Sequence record: ON568341.1
DNA from: Escherichia phage UE-S1
Reading direction: 5' to 3' (one strand)
DNA: 64,000 bases
The notes beneath the pieces are model-generated. The model saw only the letters and a program-made list of their open reading frames with translations. It made no database searches and had not been told where the DNA came from. Below are positions 5,001 through 45,943 of this stretch, piece after piece. A program made the translations under genes and the position numbers. Numbering within the stretch: position 1 is the stretch's first letter; the number at the start of each line of letters is the position of its first letter.

Positions 5001-5464
5001 TTTTCATACCAATTTGCATCCATCGGGTCATTCCAACGAATAATTTTATCTTTTAGCGATTCATTGAAACTATTACGAACATCTTGGTTAGTTTTAATTT
5101 CAGTTAATTTAGCAACTGCACGACCAGGATAAGAACGGCGTGGTGCATAAGAAATCATTTTAGCTAGTTTTAGAACTGATGCACGACGTGTTGCAGTATC
5201 TAAAAAGTTTTCACGTGTGTTTAAATCCATACGAAATGCCAAGTTCTGTCCTAGCATAGAAATTGTATCCAGAATAAAAATGAATTGGTCATTTTCAATC
5301 CAGTCATTGAATGAATCAGGATACGTTTGACGCAAATAATCAATCATACTCTGGCGAATAGTATCAAAATCATATGCAGTAAGATTGATTTTATAAAAAC
5401 TTTCATAAACTTGAGTCCAATCTTCACCACTATATAAATTTGATTGCCTTTTTTGTTGTGACAT
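2003..5464 (-). CDS. Baseplate wedge protein, gp6-like (1153 aa)
   Basis: Long ORF directly downstream of gp25-like gene, as in the conserved gp25/W - gp6/J - gp7/I myovirus baseplate order; RBS AAAGGAA before ATG; ATAAATA late-promoter-like box on minus strand at about 5511-5517. Assignment by size and synteny, not by motif. Confidence 0.45.
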   Translation of the reverse strand: MSQQKRQSNLYSGEDWTQVYESFYKINLTAYDFDTIRQSMIDYLRQTYPDSFNDWIENDQFIFILDTISMLGQNLAFRMDLNTRENFLDTATRRASVLKLAKMISYAPRRSYPGRAVAKLTEIKTNQDVRNSFNESLKDKIIRWNDPMDANWYENFILVMNSSFVSTNQFGNPVKRIDVNGVSRQLYRMNTIPMTAPSIPFVATVNGESMTFEVVNPDITSVGVEERHPEPQEQKYIVYQNDGNGFSSPNTGFFVYFIQGTLTYQDYQYNIREENRIQDVNVDNINETDVWVQEINEDGIVRAKWTKVPSMESIAYNTVNRQLKTIFAVSTRDKDQITIKYPDSRSGVVPRGTFRVWYRVSNGKTYNIKTSEIQNKSVKYTYRTKTQSSYESSTLDVRFSLQYESDRAQSAETIEQIKARAPQMYYTQNRFVNGEDYNIAPLSLGNTVLKSKAINRIYSGQSRFIDINDPTGKYQNTDVFSDDGALYQENTKFNRSLLLPTTKTNASIVIDNIQPLIGENAVIQRYQAYPSNTIGIEIQQSWTPVYNSNYTTNTYGRILGSSGTVYGSYQVGTLIKFSNSTTTVWASIVSVLDNGFYVLSTSVPSRMQAIDYILPYRTRFDSVEVQSISAMLDKKTDFVIVHDKETTAWVPVEVSTNDDTIMYNGHEVLVVINVKYTAETWEFDANGIEYIFVGGDKVKFYFVSSKKITDISTGTVQSDKIEILSSNTTSTNNSGLTSNIDFQIYDTIQQENGYLDGSRIIVTSRKVDSNGIPLEPNQFKEIVPEWSGTDALKYGGILIFKENNDFTISVLSLPNDTFTFLDSSWSYTMEQALAEPNTYKRTEFVRNNAIRSNSLSGLYSKGSGFLVCFKYDGKYYFIEQTVGNNNDRLGQLISNLTYSDDTITVTPELAFYRTINNMGTNSDENQKLDYYGYKDVTAQYTVKTNARTSIDFHWKHYAPDDNRIDPSRTNLIDMYVLTNSYKTEVDVWLKNNAVGSIPKPPTSVELKNMFKDVEQKIVISDSIIWHSAEYLPLFGNSAAEDYKADFKVVKLPNSTMSDDEIRQNVIALTNEYFNVDNWDFGESFYYTDLCTYIHSQLGRHISTIVIVAQNPNSKFGSLFEIPSRSDQIFLSTASVENVQIVNSLAKSNINIGS

Positions 5465-5520: not shown

Positions 5521-5549
5521 TATTTATTCAAAAAGAAAAGCACTCAGAA
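5521..5549 (-). terminator. Hairpin terminator/attenuator between gp25-like and gp6-like genes
   Basis: Inverted repeat aaagcactc-agaa-gagtgcttt with flanking T/A run. Confidence 0.4.
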
Positions 5550-5974: not shown

Positions 5975-6463
5975 TTATACGGATTCGACGATACGTGCCA
6001 TCTTTTCCGCTCTAGAAGTGGTTTGTTTATACCATGTACTATCACGCAATTCTTTACCAGCAGTTTTATAATCAGCTTTACCTAATGCGGACATTGCTTT
6101 TTTGAATTTCAAAACTTTGGTTTTACCCATTTGGAATACCATCATCCACAATACACGTTGTACCTGTACTGGTGCTGTCATACCAAACTGTTCATAAATG
6201 GATTTTGCGTCATTGTACGCAGTTTGAGCATCTTTAATAAGAAGTTGGTCTGCTTGTTCTTCAGTTAAACCATTTTTGAAGTTCTCGTTGGGAAGAACTA
6301 AATGACCATAACCAATAGTATCAAGTCCGAGGCTATCTTTATATACCCAAAACTTATCATTTTTAAAATATCCAAGTTTTTTTTGATAAGAAATTGTACC
6401 TTCAAACTCTTTAATTTCTTTAAAAAACTGCTCATCTGTATTTTTAATTTCCCATTTACTCAT
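5975..6463 (-). CDS. T4-type lysozyme (GH24), stand-alone; probable endolysin (162 aa)
   Basis: Motifs EFEGT…DTIGYGH…MVFQMG…WYKQT…RA match the T4 lysozyme family; own late-type promoter on minus strand (TATAAATA at 6480-6487) and RBS GAGGA. Confidence 0.85.
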   Translation of the reverse strand: MSKWEIKNTDEQFFKEIKEFEGTISYQKKLGYFKNDKFWVYKDSLGLDTIGYGHLVLPNENFKNGLTEEQADQLLIKDAQTAYNDAKSIYEQFGMTAPVQVQRVLWMMVFQMGKTKVLKFKKAMSALGKADYKTAGKELRDSTWYKQTTSRAEKMARIVESV

Positions 6464-6499
6464 AAAGACATCCTCATTTTATTTATAGTACTGAAATAT

Positions 6500-11437: not shown

Positions 11438-11752
11438 TTAGCCTATGTTTCGAGTACCATTAAGATAGTTTTGTACTCTTTGATTTGCTGGTATTCTAAT
11501 TGTTACTCCACTTTTAAAATTATATATAGGATCTTCTCCTAATATATCTGGATTTAACAATGCAAAAATATAATATAGACGTTCATTGCCATACATCTCG
11601 TAGGCTAAACGCCAGGGTTGATATTCATACTTCAATGGGATCTCATAAAAATCATCAGTATCAGCAGGAACTATATCTCGTGGTAAATTATAACCAAGAT
11701 ACCAAGATTGTTTCACCTTAGCATAAGGTGAGTATTGACTATAGTTGGACAT
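11438..11752 (-). CDS. Hypothetical baseplate-module protein (104 aa)
   Basis: ORF in the minus-strand baseplate operon; start overlaps upstream gene stop. Confidence 0.4.
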   Translation of the reverse strand: MSNYSQYSPYAKVKQSWYLGYNLPRDIVPADTDDFYEIPLKYEYQPWRLAYEMYGNERLYYIFALLNPDILGEDPIYNFKSGVTIRIPANQRVQNYLNGTRNIG

Positions 11753-12483
11753 TAAATAAATCCTCCTTTGCGTAATAGTTCACCTCGTTTAAATGCATTG
11801 AGGTTAAACGTTTTAGTCATATAATCAGATGTCGGTTGTTCTTCAAGTTGTAACATAACTGATATTTTTTGTGGAACCCAAACTTCATCTTGTGGATTCA
11901 TATATCCAGTACTTCTAAGTTGTTCGAAGAATTTTCTACTATCCATATCGGATAAATTAAAAGTACTGTCACTACTATTCAAAGGAACTTGAATATAAGA
12001 AACATCATTAGGATATGTAAAATTATAAGATTTTAAAATTACCGGAATATCATTATATGTGTAACGACCATATCCACTTAAAAGTAAAATTGGTGGTGGT
12101 GCACCAGCAATTGCCAATTCGGGGTTATTAGCAGATGCTGCTTGTCTACCAAAATCCATCAATGAAACCGAACGTATAAAATGAACACATGCCAATGCAT
12201 ACATGGCTTCTGCTGCCGTATTAGCATAAAATTCACCCTGAATAGTGAAAACCGTATTGGTGGTGTTTTTGTAATTATTATAGTTACTATTGGTATGTAT
12301 AGGTGACTGTGTTTCATACTGAATTGACCTTTGTTCAGTAATTATTGGTGTTACAGTCCAAACCAACCCATTAGTTGGACGCAGAAACGAAAGTAGTGTT
12401 GGTTCGGAGCTATCCCCGAAATCACCATATACATAGTTAGCACCTGCGGCTTTAGGTCGTAATCGAATTCTACGATCAATCAT
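11752..12483 (-). CDS. Hypothetical baseplate/tail protein (about 244 aa from ATG at 12483; ORF track extends to a GTG at 12540)
   Basis: GGAG RBS 9 nt before ATG(12483, MIDRR…); late promoter TATAAATA on minus strand at 12518-12525. Confidence 0.4.
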   Translation of the reverse strand: MIDRRIRLRPKAAGANYVYGDFGDSSEPTLLSFLRPTNGLVWTVTPIITEQRSIQYETQSPIHTNSNYNNYKNTTNTVFTIQGEFYANTAAEAMYALACVHFIRSVSLMDFGRQAASANNPELAIAGAPPPILLLSGYGRYTYNDIPVILKSYNFTYPNDVSYIQVPLNSSDSTFNLSDMDSRKFFEQLRSTGYMNPQDEVWVPQKISVMLQLEEQPTSDYMTKTFNLNAFKRGELLRKGGFI

Positions 12484-12517: not shown

Positions 12518-12525
12518 TATTTATA
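12518..12525 (-). promoter_or_regulatory. Late promoter (TATAAATA) for the minus-strand baseplate operon
   Basis: Exact TATAAATA on minus strand about 34 nt upstream of ATG 12483. Confidence 0.5.
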
Positions 12526-12613: not shown

Positions 12614-13453
12614 ATGACAAATAGACCAAAGCGTAAAAAGTATCTCAATAATGCTGATTTACTTCGTGAAATACAAAAAAGTAAGATTTCATATTGCTGG
12701 TTATTAGACAAATCATATAGTATGTATGATTATATCGTTTTTCATGAGTCAGAAATTACTGCTGAGTTACTTGAAAAAGCAAAAGCAGCACGAATTAAAC
12801 GACTTAACAATGAAATGCTTGATAGTATTCGTGCAAAGGAAAATATGAGTGCTAAAAAAGCGAAAGAATATGCAGAAGAAAATAATCTAGTTATTACTGA
12901 TGTTCCAATTGATGAAGTAGTTATTCGTGTTATTACAGATGAACACATCCCACCAGATACTAGAGTTAATTTTGAACCTTTCAAACATTATATCGTAGAT
13001 AATGAAGGTATTCTTTATGAAGTATGTCGCTCTCATTGGAAAGGTGACCTTGAATCTGGGGAATTTAGTACTGTTCATGGTAAAATAACAAATGAACTAG
13101 GGAAAATGTTCATTAAACTAGCAGAGGAAATCTCACATAAATCTAACTATAGAAACTATACATACTTAGATGAAATGATGGGTGATGCAAGAATACAATT
13201 AGTTAAAAATGCACTTCTCTTTAAAGAGAGTATTCTTTATAAAAAAGACAAACCCGCTGTACAACTAAATCCTTTCTCTTACTATACATCATTCGTAAAC
13301 AATAGTTTTCGTTCAATTTTGAATAGTGAGAAAAATGTTCGAAATATACGTGATGATTTACTTGAAATGCATGGCTTTACACCATCACATACACGTCAAA
13401 TTGAAATTGAATTGAACATGATTGAAAGGAAAAATGAAGATGGCACTGTTTGA
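12614..13453 (+). CDS. Late-transcription sigma factor, gp55-like (280 aa) with about 110-aa internal insertion
   Basis: N-terminus (RPKRKKYLNNADLLREI) and core/C-terminal segments (GKITNELGKMFIKLAEEISHKSNYRNYTYLDEMMGDARIQLVKN; NPFSYYTSFVNNSFRSIL) resemble T4 gp55 as recalled; RBS GGAGAG; adjacent to gp47/gp46 as in T4. Start taken at ATG 12614 rather than ORF-track 12512. Confidence 0.7.
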   Translation: MTNRPKRKKYLNNADLLREIQKSKISYCWLLDKSYSMYDYIVFHESEITAELLEKAKAARIKRLNNEMLDSIRAKENMSAKKAKEYAEENNLVITDVPIDEVVIRVITDEHIPPDTRVNFEPFKHYIVDNEGILYEVCRSHWKGDLESGEFSTVHGKITNELGKMFIKLAEEISHKSNYRNYTYLDEMMGDARIQLVKNALLFKESILYKKDKPAVQLNPFSYYTSFVNNSFRSILNSEKNVRNIRDDLLEMHGFTPSHTRQIEIELNMIERKNEDGTV

Positions 13454-16639: not shown

Positions 16640-16662
16640 GGGAGCCTTAGCTCCCTTTTTTT
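16640..16662 (+). terminator. Rho-independent terminator after gp46 (overlaps the stop of the convergent minus-strand gene)
   Basis: gggagc-ctta-gctccc followed by T7. Confidence 0.7.
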
Positions 16663-17138
16663 ACATCAACCATATTTAATTTACCGTCCTTAATCAGCTT
16701 TCTAGCTTGTTTTGCACGAGTAGTAGTGTTACTGCCAGGGACAACTCCGAACCCTTCCAGAATCTCGTTTTGCTGCGTTGCTGGGAGCCTTTTAAATTTA
16801 TTAGTATCCACTGTTAGTGCCGTGTGATGTATAACTTGCTCTTCTGGTGGAATATTATTGTTCTTTTCAAGGTAGTCAGCAAGGTTGCGTAGTACTTCAT
16901 GCAATGGCTTATCTGTTAAATGACTAAGACAGCGTTTAAATGAATTTGCAACCCTTCCTTCCCATCCATTCACCTCATTTTGAAGAACCTGTCTACAATG
17001 TTGATTTCCACCATGATAGTGATCCAGAACTGGTTTAGTTATTTTTATGCCTATGATGGGGTCAATGCCATTTTGTTTATTTAGCAATTCAGTTCGATAG
17101 TTTGCAGCATCCTTACTATCTTTTAATCTTTTTTTCAT
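16647..17138 (-). CDS. Putative recombination endonuclease VII-like protein (163 aa)
   Basis: Segment LDHYHGGNQHCRQVLQNEVNGWEG resembles the EndoVII LDHDH…CN…EG core; size close to T4 gp49; neighbourhood of gp55 as in T4. Canonical Cys ligands not all obvious. Confidence 0.45.
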   Translation of the reverse strand: MKKRLKDSKDAANYRTELLNKQNGIDPIIGIKITKPVLDHYHGGNQHCRQVLQNEVNGWEGRVANSFKRCLSHLTDKPLHEVLRNLADYLEKNNNIPPEEQVIHHTALTVDTNKFKRLPATQQNEILEGFGVVPGSNTTTRAKQARKLIKDGKLNMVDVKKGS

Positions 17139-17227
17139 AATTCCTCACCAAACTATTTGTCATCACAATATTTATAGATTAGTTATTTGCAATATTTTAA
17201 GTACTTAATGAATATTTTATAAAAATA

Positions 17228-17257
17228 GTGAGACAACTTTAAAATTTGTGCTATAAT
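17228..17257 (+). promoter_or_regulatory. Promoter (GTGAGACAA-N15-TGCTATAAT) driving the ORF-free locus
   Basis: Same box and spacing as the primase promoter at 56742-56771. Confidence 0.5.
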
Positions 17258-17990: not shown

Positions 17991-18200
17991 TTAGTGCTTC
18001 TCGTTTTGTTTTTTAATTTTTTTATTAAAAGACTTAACTAATAAGTCTCTATCTATTAATGGCATATTAAGAAGTGTTCCGTAATCAATATTATCCATAT
18101 ACACAGAACACTCCATTAGTGCATTTTTGATTTCTGACTTATTCAGTTCTATCTCCTTCAGTACTTCTTGTATTTCTTCAGGAGATGACTGGAGAAGCAT
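17991..18200 (-). CDS. Hypothetical protein (69 aa)
   Basis: Start overlaps upstream stop (TAATG coupling); followed by terminator. Confidence 0.4.
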   Translation of the reverse strand: MLLQSSPEEIQEVLKEIELNKSEIKNALMECSVYMDNIDYGTLLNMPLIDRDLLVKSFNKKIKKQNEKH

Positions 18201-19036
18201 TACTCGAAAAAATGACTAGGATCATATTTTAGTCCATCAATTTCCCATTGATGATTACATCCATCACACTCAACTTCCATACTATGCGATACTCCAATTT
18301 CAAGTACTTCATCCATTTTTTCACGAATTAGTTTAAGAACTCCTTTTGATTGTTGTCCAAGCCACTCATTAATGAATTCTTTTTCAACTACTTCATCACC
18401 ATCTGGAGTGATGATTTTTGCAATAACTCCACCAATCATATCAAAGTTTAGTTGTGCCATATTTTCAAATACTTCAGAAAATATTTTTACTTTTTCGTCT
18501 TGTTCAATCTCAGCAGTTTCTAGAAACTTAGTTTTCTGCTGCTCACTGAACATACGCTCAGCAAACGATGAATATTCTTTCCATGTTAGTGGTCTAAACT
18601 CTAAACGTAGTCCATTATCTAAATCAATAGATGGGATTTCTTCGAATGCTTGTGCAGTTTCAAGAAGATATGATAGATTACGTTCAAAACGACCTTCTTT
18701 TTCACATTCAGGACATACAGCGTTAATATCATATGTTTCTTCTTTAGATGCAACTTTAATAGCAATAAGAAGCATTTCAACGTCATTTACATATAACTCA
18801 TCAGCATCAATAACATTAGGAACACAGTTTTCAATGACACGTGATACTGCATCGCCGTTTAGTAACATATCTGGTGTATTGAGTGTCATTTCATCACGTG
18901 CACTACGTGCACAAACGCCACATTTGACACCTTTTGGACCTAAAACTCCGTCTTTATAAGGAATAATGCCGTTAGTAACTAATTTTGTACTGATCTCTTC
19001 AATTTTAGTGTACTTAGCAAGTGGATTCATAGCCAT
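18200..19036 (-). CDS. Hypothetical zinc-ribbon protein (278 aa; CxxC pairs at N-terminal, central and C-terminal positions)
   Basis: CGVC…CPEC…CDGC cysteine pairs; divergent from the plus-strand late operon. Confidence 0.45.
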   Translation of the reverse strand: MAMNPLAKYTKIEEISTKLVTNGIIPYKDGVLGPKGVKCGVCARSARDEMTLNTPDMLLNGDAVSRVIENCVPNVIDADELYVNDVEMLLIAIKVASKEETYDINAVCPECEKEGRFERNLSYLLETAQAFEEIPSIDLDNGLRLEFRPLTWKEYSSFAERMFSEQQKTKFLETAEIEQDEKVKIFSEVFENMAQLNFDMIGGVIAKIITPDGDEVVEKEFINEWLGQQSKGVLKLIREKMDEVLEIGVSHSMEVECDGCNHQWEIDGLKYDPSHFFE

Positions 19037-19127
19037 TTTTGTTAAATCTCCATGTAATAAATGTGTTTATAGTATTTATGACCCCAATAAAAATTAAATA
19101 AACCATTTTTTATAATCACAATAGTTT

Positions 19128-19135
19128 TATAAATA
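19128..19135 (+). promoter_or_regulatory. Late promoter TATAAATA (context ATAAATATTTC)
   Basis: Exact TATAAATA 33 nt upstream of ATG 19168. Confidence 0.55.
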
Positions 19136-21383: not shown

Positions 21384-23123
21384 ATGAGTTGGAAACGACA
21401 TATGACAGTGGGAAGGTCAAAGCTATCGACTATCCCAAATCAGTCCAATAATAGCAATAAATCAACAGGAACAAAAACCAATTTTGCTTCCTATCTTCCA
21501 GTTGTATATAATGGATTGGCAAACCGTACTGAACGTTATAGTCAGTATGAGCAAATGGACCAAGACCCTGAAATTAGAACTGCATTGAATATCATTGCTG
21601 ACTTTTGTACTCAAAGTACTGAAGATTATGGTTTACCATATAAAATAAAATACAAAGATGATATTGGGGATACTGAAGTAACAACGATTGAAGATCGTTT
21701 AGATGCATGGACTGAACAAAATGATTTTAAAACACGAATGTATGAGATTGTACGTGGTCTTTTGAAATATGGGGACCAGTTTTTTATCCGAGATCCAGAA
21801 ACATTTGATTGGTATTGGGTGAGTCCAAAAAACGTCGAACAAGTATTTGTTAATGAAGCAACTGGGAAAACACCAGTAATTTATTACATACGTGATGTAT
21901 CATTAAACTTAAAAGATAAAGTTTATAGTAATCTACAAGTTGGATTCGATAAAACCGCTTATCCTGGTGCTATTCCTACAACAATGGGTGGTGGTGGTTC
22001 TGTCGCTGCTGGCGGTGCATCTGGATTCACTAGTCAAGGTAATACTGCTGACCCTTTCAGCACTAATGGTCAATTAGATGTTATTCCTGTTGGTGCAGAA
22101 CACGTAATCCATTTGACGCTAAATACTGGACAAGATGGAGTATGGCCTTTTGGTACTAGTATACTTGAGGATGTATTCAAAGTTTATAAACAAAAAGAAC
22201 TTCTAGAAGATAGTATCATAATTTATCGTGTACAACGTGCTCCAGAACGTCGTGTTTTTAAAATCGATGTTGGTGATATGCAAGCACATCAGGCAATGGC
22301 TTATGTGGAAAGATTTAAAAATGAAATTCATCAGCGTAGAATACCTTCAAACAAAGGTGGAAGTACTTCTTTAATGGATGCAGCATATAATCCTTTAAGT
22401 ATATTAGAAGATTACTTTTTCCCACAAACTTCTGAAGGTCGTGGTTCGGATGTTCAAACTTTACCAGGTGGTGATAACTTAGGGCAAATTGATGACTTAC
22501 GCTACTTCAATAATAAATTGATACGTGGTCTTCAAATACCAGCTTCCTATCTACCACAAGGTCCAGATGATGGTGGTGTTTCATTATTTGGTGATGGTGC
22601 AACACAAGCTATGGCAAGTGAATTACGATTCAATAATCAATGTATGCGTTATCAGCGTTTAGTTGCGAAACATTTTGATGCTGAATTCAAAAGATTTATG
22701 GTAAAAAATGGATATAATATTAGTACTTCATCATTTGAAGTCATTATGAATCCACCAATTAACTTAGCTTCTTATCGTAAAGCTGAATTGGATGCTAAAT
22801 TAATTAATACATATCTACCTCTTAATGATTTACCTTATATGGCTAAACAAACAATTCTTGAGAAAATGGGCTTTTCTAAAGCAGATATTGTTAAGAATGA
22901 ACAAATGTGGTTACAAGAGAATCCACAAGATGGTTCTCAACCTTCTAGTGGTGAAGAAGATTCTGCTGGATTACAGTCTGTTGGTATTGATGCACCAAAT
23001 GACCCAGGTATGGATCTTGGTATTGACGGTGATGGTAATTTAGAAAGTGCTGATTCCGAATATCAAGAACAACAAAGTGGAAGTGATGGTTTCAATCCTA
23101 ATAATTTAGGCAATTCTTTTTAA
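21384..23123 (+). CDS. Portal vertex protein, gp20-like (579 aa)
   Basis: Size and position heading the 20-67-68-21-22-23-like head cluster; no motif-level confirmation. Confidence 0.6.
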   Translation: MSWKRHMTVGRSKLSTIPNQSNNSNKSTGTKTNFASYLPVVYNGLANRTERYSQYEQMDQDPEIRTALNIIADFCTQSTEDYGLPYKIKYKDDIGDTEVTTIEDRLDAWTEQNDFKTRMYEIVRGLLKYGDQFFIRDPETFDWYWVSPKNVEQVFVNEATGKTPVIYYIRDVSLNLKDKVYSNLQVGFDKTAYPGAIPTTMGGGGSVAAGGASGFTSQGNTADPFSTNGQLDVIPVGAEHVIHLTLNTGQDGVWPFGTSILEDVFKVYKQKELLEDSIIIYRVQRAPERRVFKIDVGDMQAHQAMAYVERFKNEIHQRRIPSNKGGSTSLMDAAYNPLSILEDYFFPQTSEGRGSDVQTLPGGDNLGQIDDLRYFNNKLIRGLQIPASYLPQGPDDGGVSLFGDGATQAMASELRFNNQCMRYQRLVAKHFDAEFKRFMVKNGYNISTSSFEVIMNPPINLASYRKAELDAKLINTYLPLNDLPYMAKQTILEKMGFSKADIVKNEQMWLQENPQDGSQPSSGEEDSAGLQSVGIDAPNDPGMDLGIDGDGNLESADSEYQEQQSGSDGFNPNNLGNSF

Positions 23124-23196
23124 ACATAAATAACAGTGTATAAGAATGAGGGTTTATATTAGCCCTCATTTATAATGCATATTTCAAGGAGATTGA

Positions 23197-23424
23197 ATGT
23201 TAAAGGACATCTTTGAATCTAGCAGTGATTCAATGTACGACCCTGAAGATGATCAGAACGTATATAAAATTACTGACTCCAGAAAACCAAAACTAACATT
23301 ACAAGTATTAAATAACTTAAGAAAGTATCGTGAATTTAAAGCACATGAGGAACAACGCCGCAAAAATGTGGTTGCTGTTGTTTATGCATCTACCCCAACA
23401 GGTGATGATTCTGGATTAATGTAA
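23197..23424 (+). CDS. Small prohead-core-like protein (gp67 position)
   Basis: Position between portal and acidic core protein; RBS AAGGAG. Confidence 0.35.
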   Translation: MLKDIFESSSDSMYDPEDDQNVYKITDSRKPKLTLQVLNNLRKYREFKAHEEQRRKNVVAVVYASTPTGDDSGLM

Positions 23425-23525
23425 ATCAAAAATCGCACTTTTTTAAGCTTTTAAAAAAGGTGATTTTATTCAGTACTAAATAATATCATACTTTATACGA
23501 ATATAATATATCTATGGAGGATATA

Positions 23526-24356
23526 ATGGCGAATTTAAAACTACTACAAGAAGCAATTGCGGCGTTTGCAAATGGTGAACAAGATATTGCTGATAAAAAA
23601 ATGCGTAAGTATTTTGTTGAGCAAGCACAAGAAATTAACAAGAAGCTAGAAGAAAGCATGGAAGATGAAGACGAGGAAGTTGAAGTCGAAGATGAAGAAC
23701 AGCTTGACGAAGATTTTGATGTGCAACCAGATGCTGGTCTAAATGCTGAAATCGAATACACACTTGGTGAAGAAGATGAAAGTGCAGAAGATGAAGTTGA
23801 GTTTTCTGCTGATGCTGATGGTGACGGTGAAGATGATGTTGATGTGGAAGTGAAGGCAGATGCTGATGTTCCTTCTGAAGATCAATGGGAATCAATTCAG
23901 GATGCTTTCCGTGGTTTACAACAAATGTTTGATGAAATTGGTGATGGCGAAGTTGACCTAGATTCCGATGAAGAAGTTGAAGATAGTGAAGAAGAAGTCG
24001 GCGTTGACGGTGAAGACGAATTTGCTGACGTTGAATTCGGTGATGAAAAAATTGGTGAATCCTTCAAACTAGAAAAAGTTGCACCTGTCGACAAGAAAGA
24101 AAAAGCTGGTACTCATACTAAATCCCCAGTAGCACCTGAAGCAAAATCCCCAGTAGCAGGAGCAGAACCAGTTAAATTTGCAAAGAAAACTGATCAAGCA
24201 CCACTAGTAGACCTAGATGATAAATCTGTTCTACCAAAAGATAACCTTGATCTTGGTAAAAATGCTCGCGGTGAAATGAAAGATGTAAAAGCACCAAAAA
24301 CTACTGCATCAAATTCTAAATCACCACTAAGTAAAGCACAACCTAAAGTAAAATAA
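23526..24356 (+). CDS. Highly acidic prohead core/scaffold-associated protein (gp68 position)
   Basis: Long Asp/Glu runs (EDEDEEVEVEDEEQLDEDFD…); GGAGG RBS 7 nt before ATG 23526; late-type leader almost identical to that of the capsid gene. Confidence 0.45.
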   Translation: MANLKLLQEAIAAFANGEQDIADKKMRKYFVEQAQEINKKLEESMEDEDEEVEVEDEEQLDEDFDVQPDAGLNAEIEYTLGEEDESAEDEVEFSADADGDGEDDVDVEVKADADVPSEDQWESIQDAFRGLQQMFDEIGDGEVDLDSDEEVEDSEEEVGVDGEDEFADVEFGDEKIGESFKLEKVAPVDKKEKAGTHTKSPVAPEAKSPVAGAEPVKFAKKTDQAPLVDLDDKSVLPKDNLDLGKNARGEMKDVKAPKTTASNSKSPLSKAQPKVK

Positions 24357-24376
24357 ATAAATGAAAGGAGATCATT

Positions 24377-25000
24377 ATGAGTAGTATGATACGTGAATGG
24401 TCTTCATTCAATGATTCTAAAGTTGTTTTGGAACATCGTGATAATGGGTTTGGTGGGCGTGATTGTTACCTTCGTGGTATTGCAATTCAAGCAGACCAAC
24501 GCAATTTGAACGAGAGAATTTACCCTTTATCTGAAATTACAAGAGCAGTAAATAATATGAATCAGCGTTTAGCTAAAGGTGAAAGTATTCTTGTTGAATG
24601 TGACCATCCAGAAACACTGACTATTAATTTAGACCGAGTAGCAGCAATGATTACTAAGGTTTGGATGGAAGGTGCAAATGGTATGGCTGAAATCAAATTA
24701 CTTGATACTGCACATGGTCAGAATATCCGTAAAATGCTAGAGGCTGGTGTAAAACTTGGTGTAAGTTCTCGCGGTTCCGGTAACGTAGATTATAATGGAA
24801 TAGTTTCTGATTTTGAAATTATCACTATTGATATTGTTGCTCAACCTAGTGCTCCAGAAGCATACCCAACAGCGGTATTTGAATCTCTGATGAGTAAGTA
24901 CGGATCACCTTGTAATGGTTCTAAAAAAATCACTGAATCTAAAAAAGTAAATAATTTAGATTCTGAAATATACGATTTTTTCAAGAAATTAAAAGGTTAA
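24377..25000 (+). CDS. Prohead core protease, gp21-like (207 aa)
   Basis: Size and synteny (immediately upstream of scaffold and major capsid genes). Confidence 0.6.
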   Translation: MSSMIREWSSFNDSKVVLEHRDNGFGGRDCYLRGIAIQADQRNLNERIYPLSEITRAVNNMNQRLAKGESILVECDHPETLTINLDRVAAMITKVWMEGANGMAEIKLLDTAHGQNIRKMLEAGVKLGVSSRGSGNVDYNGIVSDFEIITIDIVAQPSAPEAYPTAVFESLMSKYGSPCNGSKKITESKKVNNLDSEIYDFFKKLKG

Positions 25001-25011
25001 CATTTTAAAAA

Positions 25012-25019
25012 TATAAATA
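25012..25019 (+). promoter_or_regulatory. Late promoter TATAAATA upstream of scaffold gene
   Basis: Exact TATAAATA followed by hairpin and RBS AAAGGAGAG. Confidence 0.5.
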
Positions 25020-25066
25020 TCTGTATGTTGAAGTACAGATATTTCAGTACTTAAAGGAGAGAACGA

Positions 25067-26182
25067 ATGTCTAAATTAGAAAAGCTTCTAAAAGAATCAT
25101 CTCTTTCTGATGAGGCAAAACAGCTAATTCAGGAAGCATGGAATGAAGAAAAGAATACACTAGCCGCAGAGATGCGTGAAGAAATGAAAGGCCGTTATCA
25201 GCAAGATTTGGCTGAATTAACCGAAGGGTTGAACACTATGGTTACTCAAGTCATTGCTGAAGAAATGGGTGCTGTATATGAAGAGAAAAAACGTCTTGTT
25301 GAAGACCGTGTAACTCTACGTAAAACACTAAGCAATTTCTCTGCGTTTTCAAATTCTGTTTTGGCTGAAGAAGTTAAACAAATGCGTAAAGAGCGTAAGC
25401 ATCTGCATGAATGCATGGGTAAATTCGTTAATTTTTCTAACGGTATCCTAGCAGAAGAACTAAAAGAATTCCACACAGAAAAACGTCAACTGGTTGAAGC
25501 TCGTGTAAAATTACTTGCAGAAGGTTCACGTCAAATTGCTGAAGCTCGTAATAACTTCATCAAACGTACATCTGAAAGTGCTGCTAAATATATTGCAGAG
25601 ACAACACAGAAGAATCTATATGCGTTAAAACAAGATCTAGTGGAAGCGAAACAAAATATGTTTGGTCGTAAAATCTTTGAAGCATTTGCTCAAGAATTTA
25701 ATGTCAAACAATTCAATGAAAATTCATTGCTACGTTCACTAACTGAAACAATTAAATCTAAAGAAGATGAAATTGATCAAGTTAAGCAAGAACTACATGA
25801 AACTGTTAATGCGGTTAAAGCTGCTAAAACTAAACTACGTATTATGGAAGATGCACAAGCCCGTAATGCGATTATGTCAGAACTAGTAAAACCACTAACT
25901 GCACAGCAAAAACAAATTATGGAATCCCTTCTAGCAACTTCACCTACTGAAAAGCTTAAAGAAGATTTCAGTAAGTACCATAAGTCAGTACTTAACGGTA
26001 CTAAAGTAAATGAATCTGCTACCACTCGTCAAGCAGTTCAGTCTTCCGCTAAGAAAACTCTTGCAGAAGGTAAAGTGATCACTGGCAACCGTCAGGCTAT
26101 TGTTGAAAGCGAAGAAATGACCGCTGACGATATGGCATTCCTAAAAGAACTCGATGTTCTTTCGGGTATCAATAAAAAATAA
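25067..26182 (+). CDS. Prohead scaffold protein, gp22-like (371 aa, coiled-coil)
   Basis: Charged, helix-prone, Glu/Lys/Ala-rich; directly upstream of major capsid gene. Confidence 0.6.
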   Translation: MSKLEKLLKESSLSDEAKQLIQEAWNEEKNTLAAEMREEMKGRYQQDLAELTEGLNTMVTQVIAEEMGAVYEEKKRLVEDRVTLRKTLSNFSAFSNSVLAEEVKQMRKERKHLHECMGKFVNFSNGILAEELKEFHTEKRQLVEARVKLLAEGSRQIAEARNNFIKRTSESAAKYIAETTQKNLYALKQDLVEAKQNMFGRKIFEAFAQEFNVKQFNENSLLRSLTETIKSKEDEIDQVKQELHETVNAVKAAKTKLRIMEDAQARNAIMSELVKPLTAQQKQIMESLLATSPTEKLKEDFSKYHKSVLNGTKVNESATTRQAVQSSAKKTLAEGKVITGNRQAIVESEEMTADDMAFLKELDVLSGINKK

Positions 26183-26220
26183 ACATTTTAAAGCATTTTA
26201 ATAATCAATTTTTTCAGTTC

Positions 26221-26228
26221 TATAAATA
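26221..26228 (+). promoter_or_regulatory. Late promoter TATAAATA for the major capsid gene
   Basis: Exact TATAAATA 46 nt upstream of ATG 26274; RBS AAGGAG. Confidence 0.6.
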
Positions 26229-26273
26229 ATATCATACTGAAAAACGAATATAACATCTTTAAGGAGATATATA

Positions 26274-27449
26274 ATGTCACAACTACTAAATGAATCCAAA
26301 TGGGTAGCAGTAAAAGAGAAACTAGTTGAAGGTCTACAGGGTACTCGTAAGTCTGTAATGGAAACTGTTCTTGATAACCATCGTAAAGTTATGCTAACTG
26401 AATCCGCAACTTCTGGTGCAACTACCGCTGGTAATATCGCTACACTAAACAAAGTGATTCTACCAATTATGCGTCGTGTAATGCCAACTGTTATTGCTAA
26501 CGAAATTATCGGTGTTCAGCCTATGACTGGCCCAGTCGGTCAAATTCACACCCTACGTGTACAATATGCTGATAATGCACCTGGTGTTATCGCTGGTGAA
26601 GAAATGCTTTCTCCATACAAAATCGCTAAATCCTACTCTGGTGAACTAAATTCTGATAACAGCAATCCTCAAGCTGCTCCTACTAGCCAACTAGAAGGTA
26701 CTATGGGTCGTCGCGTTAACATCCGTATTCTACGTGAAACAGTTGAAGCGAAATCTCGTCGTCTATCTGCACGTTGGACTGTTGAATCTGCACAAGATGC
26801 TCAATCCCAACATGGTGTTGACGTTGAAGCAGAACTAATGGCTGCAATCGCTCAAGAAGTTACCGTAGAAATCGACCAAGAGCTACTAAGCCGTCTACGT
26901 GCACTACCTGGTGCTGCTGCTGTAACTTATGACCAATCTAAAGTTACTGGTGTTGCAACCTTCGTTGGTGATGAGCACGCTGCTCTAGCAACTCTAATTA
27001 ACCGTCAAGCAAACGAAGTTGCTCGTCGTACTAAGCGTGGTGCTGCAAACTGGGCTGTTGTTTCCCCAACTGCACTAACCATTCTACAATCTGCTACTAC
27101 TTCTAGCTTTGCACGTACCACTGAAGGTACTTTCGAAGCACCAACTAACGTTAAGTTTGTAGGTACTCTAAATAGCACTATGCGTATTTTTGTTGATACT
27201 TATGCAAGTGATTCAGAAGATATTCTAATTGGTTATAAAGGTAATGCAGAAACTGATGCTGGTGTGTTCTATTGCCCATACATCCCACTAATGGCATCCG
27301 GTACTGTAATGGACCCTAACACTGGTGAATTGGTCACAACCTTCCTCACTCGTTATGGTTACGTACAACTCACTGACTCAACCAGTAGCTTGGGTAATGC
27401 TGCGGATTACTACAGCAAAATCGCTATCAAAAACGTTACTTTCATGTAA
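26274..27449 (+). CDS. Major capsid protein, gp23-like (391 aa)
   Basis: Blocks GVQPMTGPVGQIHTLR, IEAKSRRL and GYKGNAETDAGVFYCPYIPL match T4 gp23 as recalled; strong RBS and late promoter. Confidence 0.9.
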   Translation: MSQLLNESKWVAVKEKLVEGLQGTRKSVMETVLDNHRKVMLTESATSGATTAGNIATLNKVILPIMRRVMPTVIANEIIGVQPMTGPVGQIHTLRVQYADNAPGVIAGEEMLSPYKIAKSYSGELNSDNSNPQAAPTSQLEGTMGRRVNIRILRETVEAKSRRLSARWTVESAQDAQSQHGVDVEAELMAAIAQEVTVEIDQELLSRLRALPGAAAVTYDQSKVTGVATFVGDEHAALATLINRQANEVARRTKRGAANWAVVSPTALTILQSATTSSFARTTEGTFEAPTNVKFVGTLNSTMRIFVDTYASDSEDILIGYKGNAETDAGVFYCPYIPLMASGTVMDPNTGELVTTFLTRYGYVQLTDSTSSLGNAADYYSKIAIKNVTFM

Positions 27450-27492
27450 TATTGATTTTTGTAGAATTTATAGAATAAAAAACTTTTATACT

Positions 27493-27518
27493 AGGGACTC
27501 TTCGGAGTCCCTTTTTTG
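27493..27518 (+). terminator. Rho-independent terminator after capsid gene
   Basis: agggactc-ttcg-gagtccct followed by T6. Confidence 0.75.
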
Positions 27519-27603
27519 GTTTTTATATAACTAAAAGATCTTGACAGTACTTAACAATTGTAGTATCATACGTGTAAATAAAGAAAAGAACTCGGAGAAA
27601 ATC

Positions 27604-29199
27604 GTGTTAGAAGAAATCAAGAAGTTTTTATCAGAGAAAAATGTTCGTGGTGTTAAATCTGCTCTGCAAGCAAAATCTGTATACATTGAATTCCTGCGAG
27701 AGATGTTTGGTGATATCGATCTTAATGAAATGATTTATATGGTATTGAATGATATTACTTCAGTGCCGAATGCTGAATGTGGTGACAAAGCTAAGTTTAT
27801 AAGTATTACCGAAGGATATTCTTACAAGTGCAATAAACCATTTCAAGGAAAAGGAAAATGCCTTATCTGTTGCTCCGCAGTTGCTAGGAAACGTAAAGAA
27901 ACTTACAAAGAAAAAACTGGTTATGATAACCCGGCACAGAATCCAGAAATTCAAAAGAAAATAGGGTATACCAATGAACAACGTTATGGCACTCGTATTG
28001 CTCAACAATCTGAACAAGTAAAGCAGAAATCAATAGAAACTAATATTAAAAAGTATGGTGTTGTTCATCCATCACAGTTGGAAAGTAATAAACAGCAACG
28101 TTTACAAACGGTACAAGAAAAGTATGGTATCAATAATGTATGGCAACTTAATAAAGGTCTTAGTGCACGTTATGAACAGTTTAAAACACGATTTGAACAG
28201 GATGGTAAATTTACTCTTTTAAGTGATGAATCCCATTATGATAATAGCAATGACGCAACTCATGCAATCATGCACTGGAAATGTAATGAATGTGGTAATG
28301 AGTTTGATAAAGTTGCTCTTTGCTTACGCTGCCCTAAGTGTGAACCATATTCATCCAGTACTGAAGAAGTAAATCTTTATAATTACATTACCTCTATCTA
28401 TAGTGGTGTGGTTATTCAAAACAGCCGCAACATCATCAAAGGTAATGAGATTGATATCTTCATCCCAGAATTGAAACTTGGTATTGAGTTCAATGGTGAG
28501 TATTGGCATCGTGATGAAGTTCGTGGTAAAAACTATCATCAATCCAAATACTTCAAAATGAAGGAAGCAGGATACAAACTTATCACTATCTATAGTAATG
28601 AATGGTCAAATAAAACTGAAATTGTTAAGAATCGTTTGAAAAGTTTGATTAGTGTGGATAGTAAAATCTATGCTCGTAAGTGTGAAGTTAGATTGGTTGC
28701 CCATGAAGAATGTGATAAATTTTTGTATGAACATCATATTCAAGGACCATGCCAATCATCAATCAAACTTGGACTTTACTATAATGATGATTTGGTTGCT
28801 TTGATGACATTTGGTGCACCACGATTTAACAAGCAGTATGAATATGAATTACTGCGTTATTGTTCTAAAGGAACAGTTGTTGGGGGTGCATCGAAACTGT
28901 TAAAACATTTTGAACGTATGTATCTTCCTAAATCTCTTCTTTCATACGCCGATATGAACTGGAGTACTGGTAATTTGTATGAAAAAATTGGTTTTACTTT
29001 AGAAGAAGTAACTCAACCTGGTTATTTTTACTATGATAGAAAAAACGAAGTTGTTTATTCTCGCCATCAATGCCAAAAACAAAAACTTATTAAAAAATAT
29101 AATTTTGATAGTTCTATGACAGAGAAGGAAATGACAAAAGAATTAGGATACTTTAGAATCTATGATTGTGGTAACTTAGTTTATAAAAAGATTTACTAA
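27604..29199 (+). CDS. Multidomain homing-endonuclease-like protein, paralog 1 (GTG start; Cys clusters, tandem KYGV repeats, PD-(D/E)XK-like core, conserved C-terminal domain)
   Basis: Start set at GTG 27604 (RBS GGAG) by alignment with paralog at 62121 (VLEEIKKFL vs MIIDELKKFL); repeats …QEKYGINNVWQL…; core IDIFIPELKLGIEFNGEYWH; C-terminal block YELLRYCSKGTVVGGASKLL shared with paralog. Confidence 0.5.
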   Translation: MLEEIKKFLSEKNVRGVKSALQAKSVYIEFLREMFGDIDLNEMIYMVLNDITSVPNAECGDKAKFISITEGYSYKCNKPFQGKGKCLICCSAVARKRKETYKEKTGYDNPAQNPEIQKKIGYTNEQRYGTRIAQQSEQVKQKSIETNIKKYGVVHPSQLESNKQQRLQTVQEKYGINNVWQLNKGLSARYEQFKTRFEQDGKFTLLSDESHYDNSNDATHAIMHWKCNECGNEFDKVALCLRCPKCEPYSSSTEEVNLYNYITSIYSGVVIQNSRNIIKGNEIDIFIPELKLGIEFNGEYWHRDEVRGKNYHQSKYFKMKEAGYKLITIYSNEWSNKTEIVKNRLKSLISVDSKIYARKCEVRLVAHEECDKFLYEHHIQGPCQSSIKLGLYYNDDLVALMTFGAPRFNKQYEYELLRYCSKGTVVGGASKLLKHFERMYLPKSLLSYADMNWSTGNLYEKIGFTLEEVTQPGYFYYDRKNEVVYSRHQCQKQKLIKKYNFDSSMTEKEMTKELGYFRIYDCGNLVYKKIY

Positions 29200-29915: not shown

Positions 29916-29955
29916 GAATAAATATAGTATATATTAATCATAAAGGGATTTATAC

Positions 29956-36031: not shown

Positions 36032-36062
36032 ATGAGACAAGCATCATTTTTTGAGATATAAT
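36032..36062 (+). promoter_or_regulatory. Promoter (ATGAGACAA-N16-TATAAT)
   Basis: Motif family member, about 64 nt upstream of ATG 36126. Confidence 0.45.
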
Positions 36063-36125
36063 GGTGCTTGTAGTAATCTGACATAAACACATTTTTGATT
36101 AACAAATAGAACGGAGAATTATATA

Positions 36126-36857: not shown

Positions 36858-36922
36858 TATAAATAACGGGGAACAAGTTGTTCCCCGAATTAGTTTGATT
36901 TAAAAGTAAAGGAATACAAAAA

Positions 36923-38898: not shown

Positions 38899-39498
38899 TT
38901 ATAGTTGAACTGGAAGAGCAGCACGTACTTTAATAGCTACAGCAGTAGATGCACCTGCATCACCAACACCATCAGTTCCTTGACTTACGAAAGTTTTAGT
39001 ACGAAAAACTTTAGCTTGTGCAATAGATTTAGCTAGGTCAACAGTTGGATCAACTGGAGCAGGACATGCAGAACCTGGACGAACTTCTTGTTTATTAAAT
39101 ACGTCTTGACGTTCACAGATGAAAGTCAATGCAACAGAGTTAGCACCACCTTTAACATCAGTACCGCTAGTACCAAATGCAACTACGTTTGGGTTAGCAT
39201 TTTTAAAATCTTCAGGAATAACAACTTCTGCATCAAGAGCAAGTAGTGAAGTCGTTACAAGAACAGCACGTTGCTGTAGTAGTTGAGTAACCATGAATAG
39301 GTTATATTGTGCATTGCTTAGTGCAGTTTGATATGCATCAGCTTGAGCATCAGAACCATCGGACACAACTTTAGTAGTACCGATTTCAACATCAGTTGGT
39401 AGGTCGATTACGATGGTTACAAAACCGTTGTTGCCACCCCACCATTCACGTGCAACACCAGACATACCATAGTTACGGTTAAAAGAATTAAGACTCAT
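38899..39498 (-). CDS. Late structural protein, paralog B (199 aa); tail-tube-fold candidate
   Basis: See paralog A; strong RBS (AAGGAGAT on minus strand). Confidence 0.4.
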   Translation of the reverse strand: MSLNSFNRNYGMSGVAREWWGGNNGFVTIVIDLPTDVEIGTTKVVSDGSDAQADAYQTALSNAQYNLFMVTQLLQQRAVLVTTSLLALDAEVVIPEDFKNANPNVVAFGTSGTDVKGGANSVALTFICERQDVFNKQEVRPGSACPAPVDPTVDLAKSIAQAKVFRTKTFVSQGTDGVGDAGASTAVAIKVRAALPVQL

Positions 39499-39621
39499 GA
39501 AAATCTCCTTGTCGAATTTTGTGCAGGTTCATCCTGCTTAAAGTTATTTATCAAAAAATATTCCTAGCATTTAAATTTACTGGAATAATTAATGAATTTC
39601 TATGATATTATTTATCAAAAA

Positions 39622-45897
<6,276 letters not shown>

Positions 45898-45943
45898 GAT
45901 GTTTGTCAAGGTGATGAGCCTTGACAAACAGAGTTAAAAAATA

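Follow-up and report, generated by a model that had tools for sequence, protein, structure and literature searches.

A near-duplicate pair of predicted late expression signals in the head-gene block of Escherichia phage UE-S1

Introduction

In the head-gene block of Escherichia phage UE-S1, the genes for an acidic head protein and for the major capsid protein are preceded by spacers that closely resemble each other. What do these spacers specify, and how did so similar a sequence come to stand before two different genes? An initial annotation of a 64-kb stretch of this phage (64,000 nucleotides of ON568341.1; hereafter the window) proposed that the leaders before ATG 23526 and ATG 26274 are near-duplicates, that they are a copied cassette for the highest-abundance head proteins, and that they belong to a late promoter set matching a gp55-like sigma factor. 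The window comes from an Asteriusvirus-like (121Q/PBECO4, Rak2-like) jumbo myovirus with a genome G+C content of 34% and spacers of low complexity. Here we refer to the spacer before the acidic-protein gene as cassette A and to that before the capsid gene as cassette B.

Results

The two cassettes and their genes

The cassettes and the features adjoining them are as follows.

23429 to 23467, plus strand: A/U-rich hairpin followed by a U-run, terminator-like, ending the upstream small-gene unit directly 5' of cassette A
23475 to 23482, plus strand: late -10-type box of cassette A, ACTAAATA, with 6/8 matches to TATAAATA
23488 to 23525, plus strand: predicted 5'UTR of the acidic-protein mRNA, 38 nt, with ACGAATATAA at 23497-23506 and SD GGAGG at 23516-23520
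23526 to 24356, plus strand: acidic virion protein gene (276 aa, pI 4.05, 84 D+E residues)
26221 to 26228, plus strand: late -10-type box of cassette B, exact TATAAATA
26234 to 26273, plus strand: predicted 5'UTR of the major capsid mRNA, 40 nt, with ACGAATATAA at 26244-26253 and SD GGAG at 26263-26266, then ATATATA and ATG
26274 to 27449, plus strand: major capsid protein gene, gp23 family (Pfam Gp23, E = 5.5e-90; phrog_138)
27493 to 27522, plus strand: intrinsic terminator 3' of the capsid gene, an 8-bp G+C-rich stem and then a T-run

Both start codons of the initial annotation are right. The mechanical ORF call for the acidic protein begins at 23514, an in-frame ATG 5' of 23526, and the later start is preferred because of the annotation of relatives and the GGAGG at 23516-23520. 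The gene occupies the position of T4 gp68, between portal and prohead protease, and its product matches phrog_15696, "virion structural protein" (E = 1.9e-124). As its orthologue in phAPEC6, gp228c, is virion-associated with modest mass-spectrometry coverage, the description "highest-abundance head proteins" suits the capsid protein and does not extend to the acidic protein. The terminator 3' of the capsid gene has a counterpart at the homologous place in the G17 annotation.

The hairpin directly upstream of cassette A is stable (-13.8 kcal/mol, z -5.8; 0/200 shuffles equally stable) and shows compensatory stem changes between genera, as judged by eye. The stretch 5' of cassette B that aligns to it does not fold (0 kcal/mol). 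The box of cassette A is not TATAAATA but ACTAAATA, which is off consensus at two positions and in this respect counts against the explanation that we favor below. In other genera this position reads (T/A)ATAAATA. Variants of this kind are known from relatives: the late consensus described for the T4-related phage Aeh1 has (a/g)C at -13/-12, and cassette A shows the same C at -12 (PMC2988020), and CTAAATA variants are found among the predicted late promoters of CBB (PMC5259590).

Neither leader has significant structure (z -0.5 for cassette A, +0.7 for cassette B), and a small hairpin around the cassette A SD (TATATC…GATATA) is not significant. A conserved RNA structure was rejected since both leaders fold like shuffles and no better, and a known RNA element was ruled out by an Rfam scan of 23000-27700, which gave merely two sub-threshold chance matches outside the leaders. 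Sigma-70-like promoters were absent from the plus strand of both spacers, with matches fewer than in shuffles, and were discarded as drivers of the cassettes. GAATATA was likewise set aside as a general upstream motif, its remaining occurrences being plain SD-to-ATG spacers.

Similarity of the cassettes

The claim of near-duplicate leaders was borne out: the likeness covers ~60 nt at 77% identity and is the top pair among the 2415 formed by all pairings of the 100-nt upstream regions (70 regions) in the window. In the alignment of 23469-23528 with 26215-26276, 49/64 columns (77%) are identical, including a 16-nt block, TAAATAATATCATACT (23477-23492 in cassette A, 26223-26238 in cassette B), the 10-nt block ACGAATATAA noted above, and an 8-nt block, ATATAATG, that takes in the start codon. 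The pair scored 73, with a runner-up of 33 and a mean of 16.7 (sd 3.3), and this score was attained by 0/5000 shuffles, the highest of which reached 46. The core 16-mer and the leader part were each significant alone (0/5000 shuffles). Farther 5', in the terminator-like part, the likeness was weak (p ~0.008), and homology reaching into this stretch was dropped because unrelated spacers match equally well.

The similarity is unique within the window and within whole genomes. BLAST found two places of the cassette per Asteriusvirus genome (three in ph0011), the two lying inside the conserved head-gene block, and ATATCATACT occurs only in cassettes A and B in 121Q; further cassette copies were rejected on these grounds. 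The other late promoters of the window have only the 7-mer ATAAATA in common with the cassettes.

ATAAATA as a predicted late promoter motif

Of all 7-mers in the upstream regions of the window, ATAAATA has the strongest enrichment, occurring in 16/70 regions with 1.2 expected. Its orientation in these regions is strongly biased (17 sense vs 2 antisense), and 0/2000 shuffles matched its placement and orientation. The total count of TATAAATA in the window is at the level expected by chance (11 vs 10.96); what is non-random in these boxes is their placement and orientation, not their number. The distance from box to start codon is 15-71 nt (median 38). Besides those of the cassettes, boxes of the window include the following.

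1958 to 1964, minus strand: ATAAATA before a short ORF starting near 1920
5521 to 5527, minus strand: ATAAATA(TTTC) before the baseplate wedge gene 2003-5464, directly 3' of a terminator hairpin
6480 to 6487, minus strand: TATAAATA before the tail lysozyme / baseplate gene 5975-6463, with TTCAGTAC directly before it, as in cassette A
12518 to 12525, minus strand: TATAAATA before the structural gene 11752-12483
17169 to 17176, minus strand: TATAAATA before the endonuclease VII gene 16647-17138
19073 to 19079, minus strand: ATAAATA before the baseplate hub gene 18200-19036, forming a divergent pair with the box at 19128
19128 to 19135, plus strand: TATAAATA before the structural-protein gene at 19168
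23126 to 23132, plus strand: ATAAATA before the small gene 23197-23424 (T4 gp67 position)
24353 to 24359, plus strand: ATAAATA 24 nt 5' of the prohead protease gene (24377), overlapping the acidic-protein stop codon
25012 to 25019, plus strand: TATAAATA before the scaffolding-protein gene (25067)
29918 to 29924, plus strand: ATAAATA before the tail fibre gene at 29956 (gene name from annotation)
36858 to 36865, plus strand: TATAAATA before the small gene 36923, head of a GroES-like and virion-protein cluster
39545 to 39551, minus strand: ATAAATA before the virion structural gene 38899-39498
44546 to 44552, plus strand: ATAAATAATATTATA before the virion structural gene at 44583

The boxes that the initial annotation placed at 19128 and 25012 (plus strand) and at 6480, 12518, and 1958 (minus strand) are present. 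That given as 5511 also exists, its true position being 5521-5527 on the minus strand, and the "TTTC" extension of the consensus is found at only 3 of about 20 sites and is not a general feature. The scaffold-gene box is kept in 11 Rak2-like genomes and absent in PA5oct, and its counterpart in CBB is Porf_256 (PMC5259590, Table S7). The box at 24353 is present in Asteriusvirus (as CTAAATA in WPEC5), Munch, and EJP2, and is a weaker candidate because it is missing in Eneladusvirus, Mimasvirus, RaK2, and XaC1.

In 121Q, where as in the window late and early genes are classed from annotation and not from timing, ATAAATA precedes 13/37 genes (35%) of the head/baseplate block, 7/63 genes of the tail block, and 5/354 genes of the early region (50-200 kb, 150 kb in all; 0-2% per 50-kb bin). 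The matches include genes for tail sheath, tail tube, baseplate, fibre, and scaffold. Across 31 sites in 121Q there is no conserved -35, the information content being at most 0.35 bit at all positions from -40 to -1; the sixth nucleotide after the box is A in 21/31, and downstream positions are mostly A or T. Based on this A and on T4 geometry, we infer that transcription from cassette A starts at the A of CATAC at 23488, and the start of cassette B would lie at 26234.

In silico, then, the proposed set stands: it is -10-only and orientation-specific, lies before virion and morphogenesis genes, lacks a -35, and is accompanied by an encoded gp55-family sigma. The sites match a predicted T4-type late promoter set, which would depend on that sigma and would be active late in infection, with start sites at the predicted positions. 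The motif is not new, as it was independently proposed earlier as a late promoter for CBB and GAP32 (PMC5259590). In the literature searched we found no TSS, RNA-seq, or timing data for Rak2-like enterobacterial phages; the PA5oct RNA-seq paper gives only TATAATA/TTGAC promoters and the RaK2 genome paper does not discuss promoters.

As a separate observation, the palindrome AGTACT is ~9-fold over-represented genome-wide (~1 per 386 bp). A tie between TTCAGTACT and late promoters was rejected because this density makes one or two promoter-adjacent sites expected by chance, and the literature searched held nothing relevant on over-representation of AGTACT or CAGTACTG.

The gp55-like sigma factor

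The initial annotation's gp55-like sigma is indeed encoded in the window, with both PHROG and tblastn support.

12614 to 13453, plus strand: gp55-family late sigma factor, 279 aa, the gp55-like part being residues ~125-262

The protein matches phrog_12791, "sigma factor for late transcription" (E = 8e-154), and phrog_234 (E = 8e-18), and has tblastn matches to cyanophage gp55 (1e-9 to 1e-6). Its 121Q orthologue carries the RefSeq name "sigma factor for late transcription". Pfam gave no match, and a phmmer search for PDB relatives gave none. A hydrophobic clamp-binding tail is not obvious by eye at its C-terminus. Homologs of the gp33 co-activator and the gp45 sliding clamp are not reported in CBB (PMC5259590), and there were none among ten window proteins scanned against PHROGs. 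Because these homologs were not found and the sigma has no obvious clamp-binding tail, the activation of late promoters in UE-S1 may differ from the T4 mechanism.

Conservation of the cassettes across lineages

We compared the cassettes across Asteriusvirus, Munch, EJP2, Eneladusvirus, Mimasvirus, RaK2, and XaC1. The two intergenic regions are kept at orthologous places in at least six Rak2-like lineages and have in common the skeleton TAAATAA-N3-CATAC … GGAG … ATG, in which TAAATA, CATA, and GGAG are invariant across genera in both cassettes. In 22 aligned sequences, CATA and GGAG are invariant and the final C of CATAC nearly so. Before the capsid gene, (G/C/T)ATAAATAA is kept in 11/11 Rak2-like genomes, and the 71 nt from 26210 to 26280 are 100% identical across >20 Asteriusvirus genomes, compared with 79-88% at third-codon positions of the MCP gene. 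Both cassettes are better conserved between phages than these third-codon positions.

The likeness of the cassettes to each other has a narrower distribution. The A-B score is 66-80 in Asteriusvirus and 25-38 in other lineages (null ~19, sd 3), although this restriction to Asteriusvirus rests on a short, AT-rich tract and depends on its alignment. By a reconstruction that is likewise alignment-dependent, ~41 of the columns common to A and B are ancestral to both lineages and ~18 are Asteriusvirus-specific. The "copied cassette" thus reflects a real likeness, but not a simple recent copy, as ~41 columns are ancestral and the high score is found only in Asteriusvirus. Since near-identity is confined to that genus, the comparison most likely points to local homogenization, or convergence, atop an old common design. 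The tract of only ~60 AT-rich bases is below what can establish the direction or the reality of gene conversion.

Discussion

We consider it likely that each cassette is a complete late expression signal, and that the two became nearly identical through short-patch exchange or parallel selection on an old design. The first part of each would be a late promoter of T4 type with a -10 element alone. Its box reads TATAAATA in cassette B and, as a variant, ACTAAATA in cassette A, and the promoter is presumably recognized by the host RNA polymerase together with the phage gp55-like sigma from 12614-13453. The second would be the transcription start, on the A that lies in the conserved CATAC six nucleotides past the box, and the third a short leader (38-40 nt), A/U-rich and essentially unstructured, ending in a strong SD (GGAG/GGAGG), an ATATA spacer, and ATG. 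The old skeleton, TAAATAA-N3-CATAC … ATCT … GGAG … ATATA-ATG, stands before both genes in each of the Rak2-like lineages examined. The near-identity in Asteriusvirus would go back to gene conversion, in which short patches of sequence were exchanged between the two sites 2.75 kb apart, or else to selection acting in parallel on both.

A rather unlikely but possible alternative is that there was no copying at all, each spacer having been tuned separately for strong late transcription and for the best start region and RBS, as very abundant proteins demand. This is consistent with the fact that, of ~59 columns in which A and B agree, ~41 also occur in the out-group consensus of both lineages (promoter box, CATAC, T-run, GGAG, and ATATAATG), and with the retention of this skeleton in other genera despite a low overall A-B score. 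However, the remaining late promoters of the window share just the 7-mer, and the Asteriusvirus-specific identity includes the exact 10-mer ACGAATATAA in a leader part with no recognized function. In cassette A this 10-mer drifts (to ACGAATGTAA in 121Q and ATGAATGTAA in WPEC5), which resembles the decay of a historical copy more than a function under maintenance.

Less probable still is that the shared leader segment 5'-AUAC…ACGAAUAUAA acts after transcription, as a translational enhancer or as the operator of a phage RNA-binding protein, and so puts the most abundant virion proteins under joint control. The tail-sheath leader has ATAAATAA-N3-TATACGAATAT(A)TTCGAATA in the four lineages examined (Asteriusvirus, the Munch-like phage SE_PL, GAP32, and RaK2, with small changes) and has ATACGAATATA in common with cassette A and ACGAATATA with cassette B, whose leader is invariant in >20 genomes. 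On the other hand, the 9-mer is not over-represented genome-wide (7 vs 5.2 expected), its chance of occurring in one more late leader is ~0.02 by a post hoc estimate, the cassette A copy tolerates two substitutions in WPEC5, the 9-mer is lacking before head genes in genera other than Asteriusvirus, and leaders A and B have no conserved RNA structure. We doubt that the Asteriusvirus-specific part (an AUAC start with ACGAAUAUAA ~10-15 nt downstream), which the tail-sheath leader also has and retains across lineages, is a functional leader element. If it were, it would couple the translation or stability of the capsid, sheath, and acidic head protein mRNAs and would have spread among leaders by short-patch recombination. 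Chance likeness of two AT-rich spacers, which the low G+C content, low-complexity spacers, and unremarkable overall TATAAATA count might have suggested, is refuted by the pair score, the separate block tests, and conservation of both regions above synonymous sites, and its probability is negligible.

The preferred reading, two late expression signals of old common design, has clear parallels in known systems. T4-type late promoters (TATAAATA, gp55-dependent; Geiduschek & Kassavetis 2010, PMC2988020) resemble the predicted ones of UE-S1 in lacking a -35, in their 8-bp TATA-like box, which lies roughly a helical turn ahead of the start and is followed by AT-rich sequence, in occurring in either orientation before virion and morphogenesis genes, and in the presence of a gp55-family sigma. 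They differ in that the conserved core in UE-S1 is 7 bp (ATAAATA), its sigma has an extra N-terminal part of ~120 residues, and gp33 and gp45 homologs are not identified in the Rak2-like group. "Promoter 3" (ATAAATA), predicted before structural genes in Pectobacterium phage CBB and also in Cronobacter phage GAP32 (PMC5259590, Table S7), is the same motif in the same phage group with the same proposed late role. The CBB list includes CTAAATA variants and the scaffold-gene promoter but omits the capsid gene (257) and acidic-protein gene (254), and that publication describes neither the near-duplicate pair nor its confinement to Asteriusvirus.

Terminator hairpin and promoter modules that recur within one genome are also known as PeSL (promoter-early stem-loop) cassettes of T4-like myoviruses, which can act as sites of homologous exchange (PMC2839356, PMC4122927). 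PeSLs have early promoters and many copies and flank variable genes in hyperplastic regions, whereas the UE-S1 pair has two copies, a late-type box, and a place in a conserved head block. We rejected an assignment of the cassettes as PeSLs because they lack a sigma-70-like plus-strand promoter, only copy A has a folding hairpin, and their BLAST places are neither many nor hyperplastic.

The leader of the T7 major capsid gene, gene 10, is unstructured and A/U-rich, with the leader/RBS sequence CTTTAAGAAGGAGATATACATATG. The UE-S1 capsid leader ends in CTTTAAGGAGATATATAATG, which is close to it. Phage and promoter type are unrelated to those of UE-S1, and the two leaders have probably converged on a sequence that favors efficient initiation.

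As an expression signal, the twin cassette is of an ordinary phage type, its core motif is known from earlier predictions in related phages, and none of these results changes current understanding. What they provide is a concrete map of predicted late transcription units in the Asteriusvirus head-gene block, with boxes, inferred starts, leaders, and terminators, to which the capsid and acidic-protein promoters missing from the published list for the relative CBB are added. The pair is a small case in which regulatory DNA of a phage core module has evolved in concert or been tuned in parallel, and it could be of use as a compact strong late promoter and RBS part. More broadly, the sequences suggest that late promoter logic in the style of T4 reaches the Rak2-like jumbo phages. 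As the T4 co-activators were not found there, one may ask by what means the longer gp55-like sigma becomes active.

The head-gene block

Megablast searches with positions 22000-28000 of the window matched 72 phage records, the closest of which (121Q, PBECO4, G17, phAPEC6, slurp01 and ph0011; 92-94% identity) belong to Asteriusvirus, a genus of Escherichia jumbo myoviruses. The head genes are in a T4-like order, based on the annotations of G17 and 121Q and on Pfam and PHROG scans:

21384-23123, portal
23197-23424, 75-aa protein
23526-24356, acidic virion protein (276 aa, pI 4.05, 84 D+E)
24377-25000, prohead protease (Peptidase_S77)
25067-26182, scaffolding protein
26274-27449, major capsid protein (Pfam Gp23, E = 5.5e-90)
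27493-27512, G+C-rich terminator 3' of the capsid gene

An orthologue of the acidic protein was identified in phAPEC6 virions by mass spectrometry. Directly 3' of the terminator is an ORF for a 552-aa homing/HNH endonuclease-like protein (27541-29199; phrog_3339, DUF7487), at which alignment to the window ends in most Asteriusvirus relatives; ph0011 alone aligns further. Similar nuclease ORFs are present at 48804-49541 and 62121-63872, both with 69-nt (23-aa) repeats encoding …KYGV….

Similarity of the two spacers

The initial annotation described near-duplicate spacers before ATG 23526 (acidic protein; copy A) and ATG 26274 (capsid protein; copy B), and the sequences match that description. 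From TTCAGT to the ATG, 49 of 64 columns are identical (77%), including exact blocks of 16 nt (TAAATAATATCATACT), 10 nt (ACGAATATAA) and 8 nt (ATATAATG). In an all-versus-all comparison of the 70 upstream regions in the window (2415 pairs; mean score 16.7, sd 3.3), the pair scored 73 and the runner-up 33; a score of 73 was reached in none of 5000 shuffles. When the alignment was divided, the core and the leader were each significant separately, and the likeness farther 5' of the core was unconvincing. Copy A is preceded by a stable hairpin, A/U-rich and followed by a U-run (23429-23467; -13.8 kcal/mol, z -5.8); the equivalent stretch 5' of copy B has no fold. Neither leader has significant structure or an Rfam match, and no sigma-70-type promoter was predicted on the plus strand of either spacer.

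A predicted late promoter motif

The TATAAATA motif occurs 11 times in the window, which equals the chance expectation, so its raw count is uninformative and its placement is what counts. No 7-mer, the Shine-Dalgarno words included, was as enriched in the 80 nt 5' of genes as ATAAATA (16 of 70 regions versus 1.2 expected, p = 4e-14), which had 17 occurrences in sense and two in antisense orientation; no shuffle of the same regions (0 of 2000) matched the 16 regions bearing it. The genes that follow encode baseplate, lysozyme, endonuclease VII, head, tail-fiber and other virion proteins. The TTTC extension proposed in the initial annotation was found at only 3 of about 20 sites, and a minus-strand box it placed at 5511 is in fact at 5521-5527.

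In the complete 121Q genome, the share of called genes with the motif 5' of them is 13 of 37 in the head and baseplate block (300-348 kb), 7 of 63 at 250-300 kb (the tail block), 5 of 65 at 0-50 kb and 1 of 87 at 200-250 kb, but just 5 of 354 in a 150-kb stretch of small ORFs of early type. Genes for tail sheath, tail tube, baseplate, fiber and scaffold proteins are among those preceded by it. A logo of 31 sites has no conserved position 5' of the box, and thus no -35 element, while the sixth nucleotide after the box is A in 21 sites and C in none. This agrees with the published description of T4 late promoters, in which a TATA box of 8 bp precedes the start by roughly one helical turn, the downstream segment is AT-rich and there is no -35 conservation (PMC2988020). 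The copy A box is ACTAAATA; an (a/g)C variant at -13/-12 is described as the late consensus in Aeh1, a phage related to T4 (PMC2988020), and the late promoters predicted for phage CBB include CTAAATA variants.

Right after the TATAAATA box of the scaffold gene is a conserved inverted repeat, ATATCTGTA…TACAGATAT (25020-25045), with orthologous sites in relatives (sequence pieces L002-L012) and arms that vary in compensatory fashion between genera. As it overlaps the inferred start, it may act as a hairpin at the 5' end or else as a palindrome that binds a protein; the fold of its downstream part was not significant. A second promoter-like repeat, TG(A/G)GACA-N~16-TGTGCTATAAT, with an extended -10 and an unusual -35, precedes replication and recombination genes (17228-17257, 36050-36077, 39612-39650, 45934-45972 and 56742-56771). 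It fits a class described in CBB and GAP32, TGAAACG…TGnTATAAT, whose members are probably promoters of the middle type.

A gp55-family sigma factor

The gp55-like sigma factor that had been noted in the window is borne out by the product of 12614-13453, which matches PHROG 12791 (sigma factor for late transcription, E = 8e-154). Its residues 125-262 match PHROG 234 (late sigma transcription factor, E = 8e-18) and are linked to cyanomyovirus gp55 by tblastn (E 1e-9 to 1e-6); Pfam and PDB sequence searches gave no match. The protein exceeds T4 gp55 by about 100 residues. Its N-terminal region of about 120 residues is additional and has no family match, and its C-terminus (…MIERKNEDGTV) does not obviously resemble the hydrophobic tail by which T4 gp55 binds the clamp. 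Neither gp33 nor gp45 homologues were found in CBB by its authors (PMC5259590) or among ten window proteins scanned here. The extra N-terminal region, the C-terminus and the reported lack of gp33 and gp45 homologues together suggest that the mechanism of late transcription activation may differ from that of T4.

Conservation among relatives

We compared both spacers in 121Q, WPEC5, Munch, EJP2, Yersinia fHe-Yen9-04, Serratia BF, Erwinia pEa_SNUABM_44, GAP32, XbC2, RaK2, XaC1 and PA5oct. In all but PA5oct, whose capsid gene has no separate signal 5' of it, both genes are preceded at the same location by one common skeleton: a T-run, (N)ATAAATAA, three variable bases, CATAC, an A-rich stretch, ATCT, GGAG, ATATA and the ATG. 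TAAATA, CATA and GGAG are invariant in 22 aligned sequences. Between phages, both spacers vary less than capsid-gene third codon positions (for example, 95% and 97% versus 79% identity to WPEC5), and 71 nt of copy B are identical in >20 genomes.

The within-genome score between A and B is 66-80 in three Asteriusvirus genomes, but just 25-38 outside the genus (null ~19, sd 3). BLAST with copy B as query gives two places in each Asteriusvirus genome, apart from three in ph0011 (OP557969.1), and a single place in Munch-like phages. About 41 of the identical A/B columns agree with the out-group consensus for both lineages as well, against about 18 that are Asteriusvirus-specific. The latter include the ACGAATATAA block, of which the ACGAA part is ancestral in copy B, while the entire block is new in copy A, where it is drifting inside the genus (ACGAATGTAA in 121Q, ATGAATGTAA in WPEC5).

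The tail-sheath leader has the form ATAAATAA-N3-TATACGAATAT(A)TTCGAATA in the four lineages examined (Asteriusvirus, Munch-like phage SE_PL, GAP32 and, with small changes, RaK2); its ATACGAATATA also occurs in copy A and its ACGAATATA in copy B. By our own estimate, the chance of the shared 9-mer recurring in one further late leader is ~0.02, so this is a hint and not a finding. The sheath upstream region (12795-12850 of 121Q piece L019; also L021-L024) is strongly conserved between genera, with a palindrome, CGAATATTCG (CGAATATATTTCG in 121Q), immediately after the inferred start.

An over-represented palindrome

AGTACT occurs at 83 sites in the window versus ~16 expected (e.g., 6487-6492, 23472-23477 and 25046-25051), often within CAGTACTG or TTCAGTAC, and CAGTACT 72 times versus 6.3 in shuffles. 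The 121Q genome (L014-L020) has 903 AGTACT sites versus 100 expected and 194 of CAGTACTG versus ~4.4, in early and late regions alike. Many other 6-bp palindromes (CAGCTG, CCATGG, CTCGAG, CGTACG and others) are wholly absent. Among 77 genic sites, 51 are AGT-ACT (Ser-Thr) in frame, a codon pair more over-represented than any other (17 expected); between genera, these sites turn over at synonymous positions. The enrichment is common to all Rak2-like loci examined and is not seen in PA5oct; our literature search found no published explanation.

Interpretation of the pair

Judged from sequence, copies A and B are best read as two strong late expression signals, each of which would consist of a promoter, a start region and a leader that is unstructured and has a strong ribosome-binding site. 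They would share an old common design, followed by extra homogenization in Asteriusvirus. The similarity described in the initial annotation is confirmed, and the interpretation given there, including the idea of a copied cassette, is supported in part. For the Asteriusvirus-specific identity we favor short-patch exchange over pure convergence, because the shared 10-mer has no recognized function and is decaying in copy A, although this judgment rests on 60 AT-rich bases. The matches of the sheath leader to both copies are a lead in the opposite direction. Among concepts for regulatory modules that recur within T4-like genomes, the PeSL cassette comes closest, but PeSLs are early promoters in many copies in variable regions (PMC2839356, PMC4122927), which places the pair outside that class.

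Our literature search found no transcript-start data for enterobacterial Rak2-like phages, and the RNA-seq study of PA5oct reported only TATAATA/TTGAC promoters. A T4-like late promoter, ATAAATA, was already proposed before structural genes of CBB (35 sites) and GAP32 (PMC5259590); the CBB list includes the scaffold gene but not the capsid and acidic-protein genes, and does not mention the twin cassette. The pair is a further case of a known type of element, its late motif having already been predicted in relatives.
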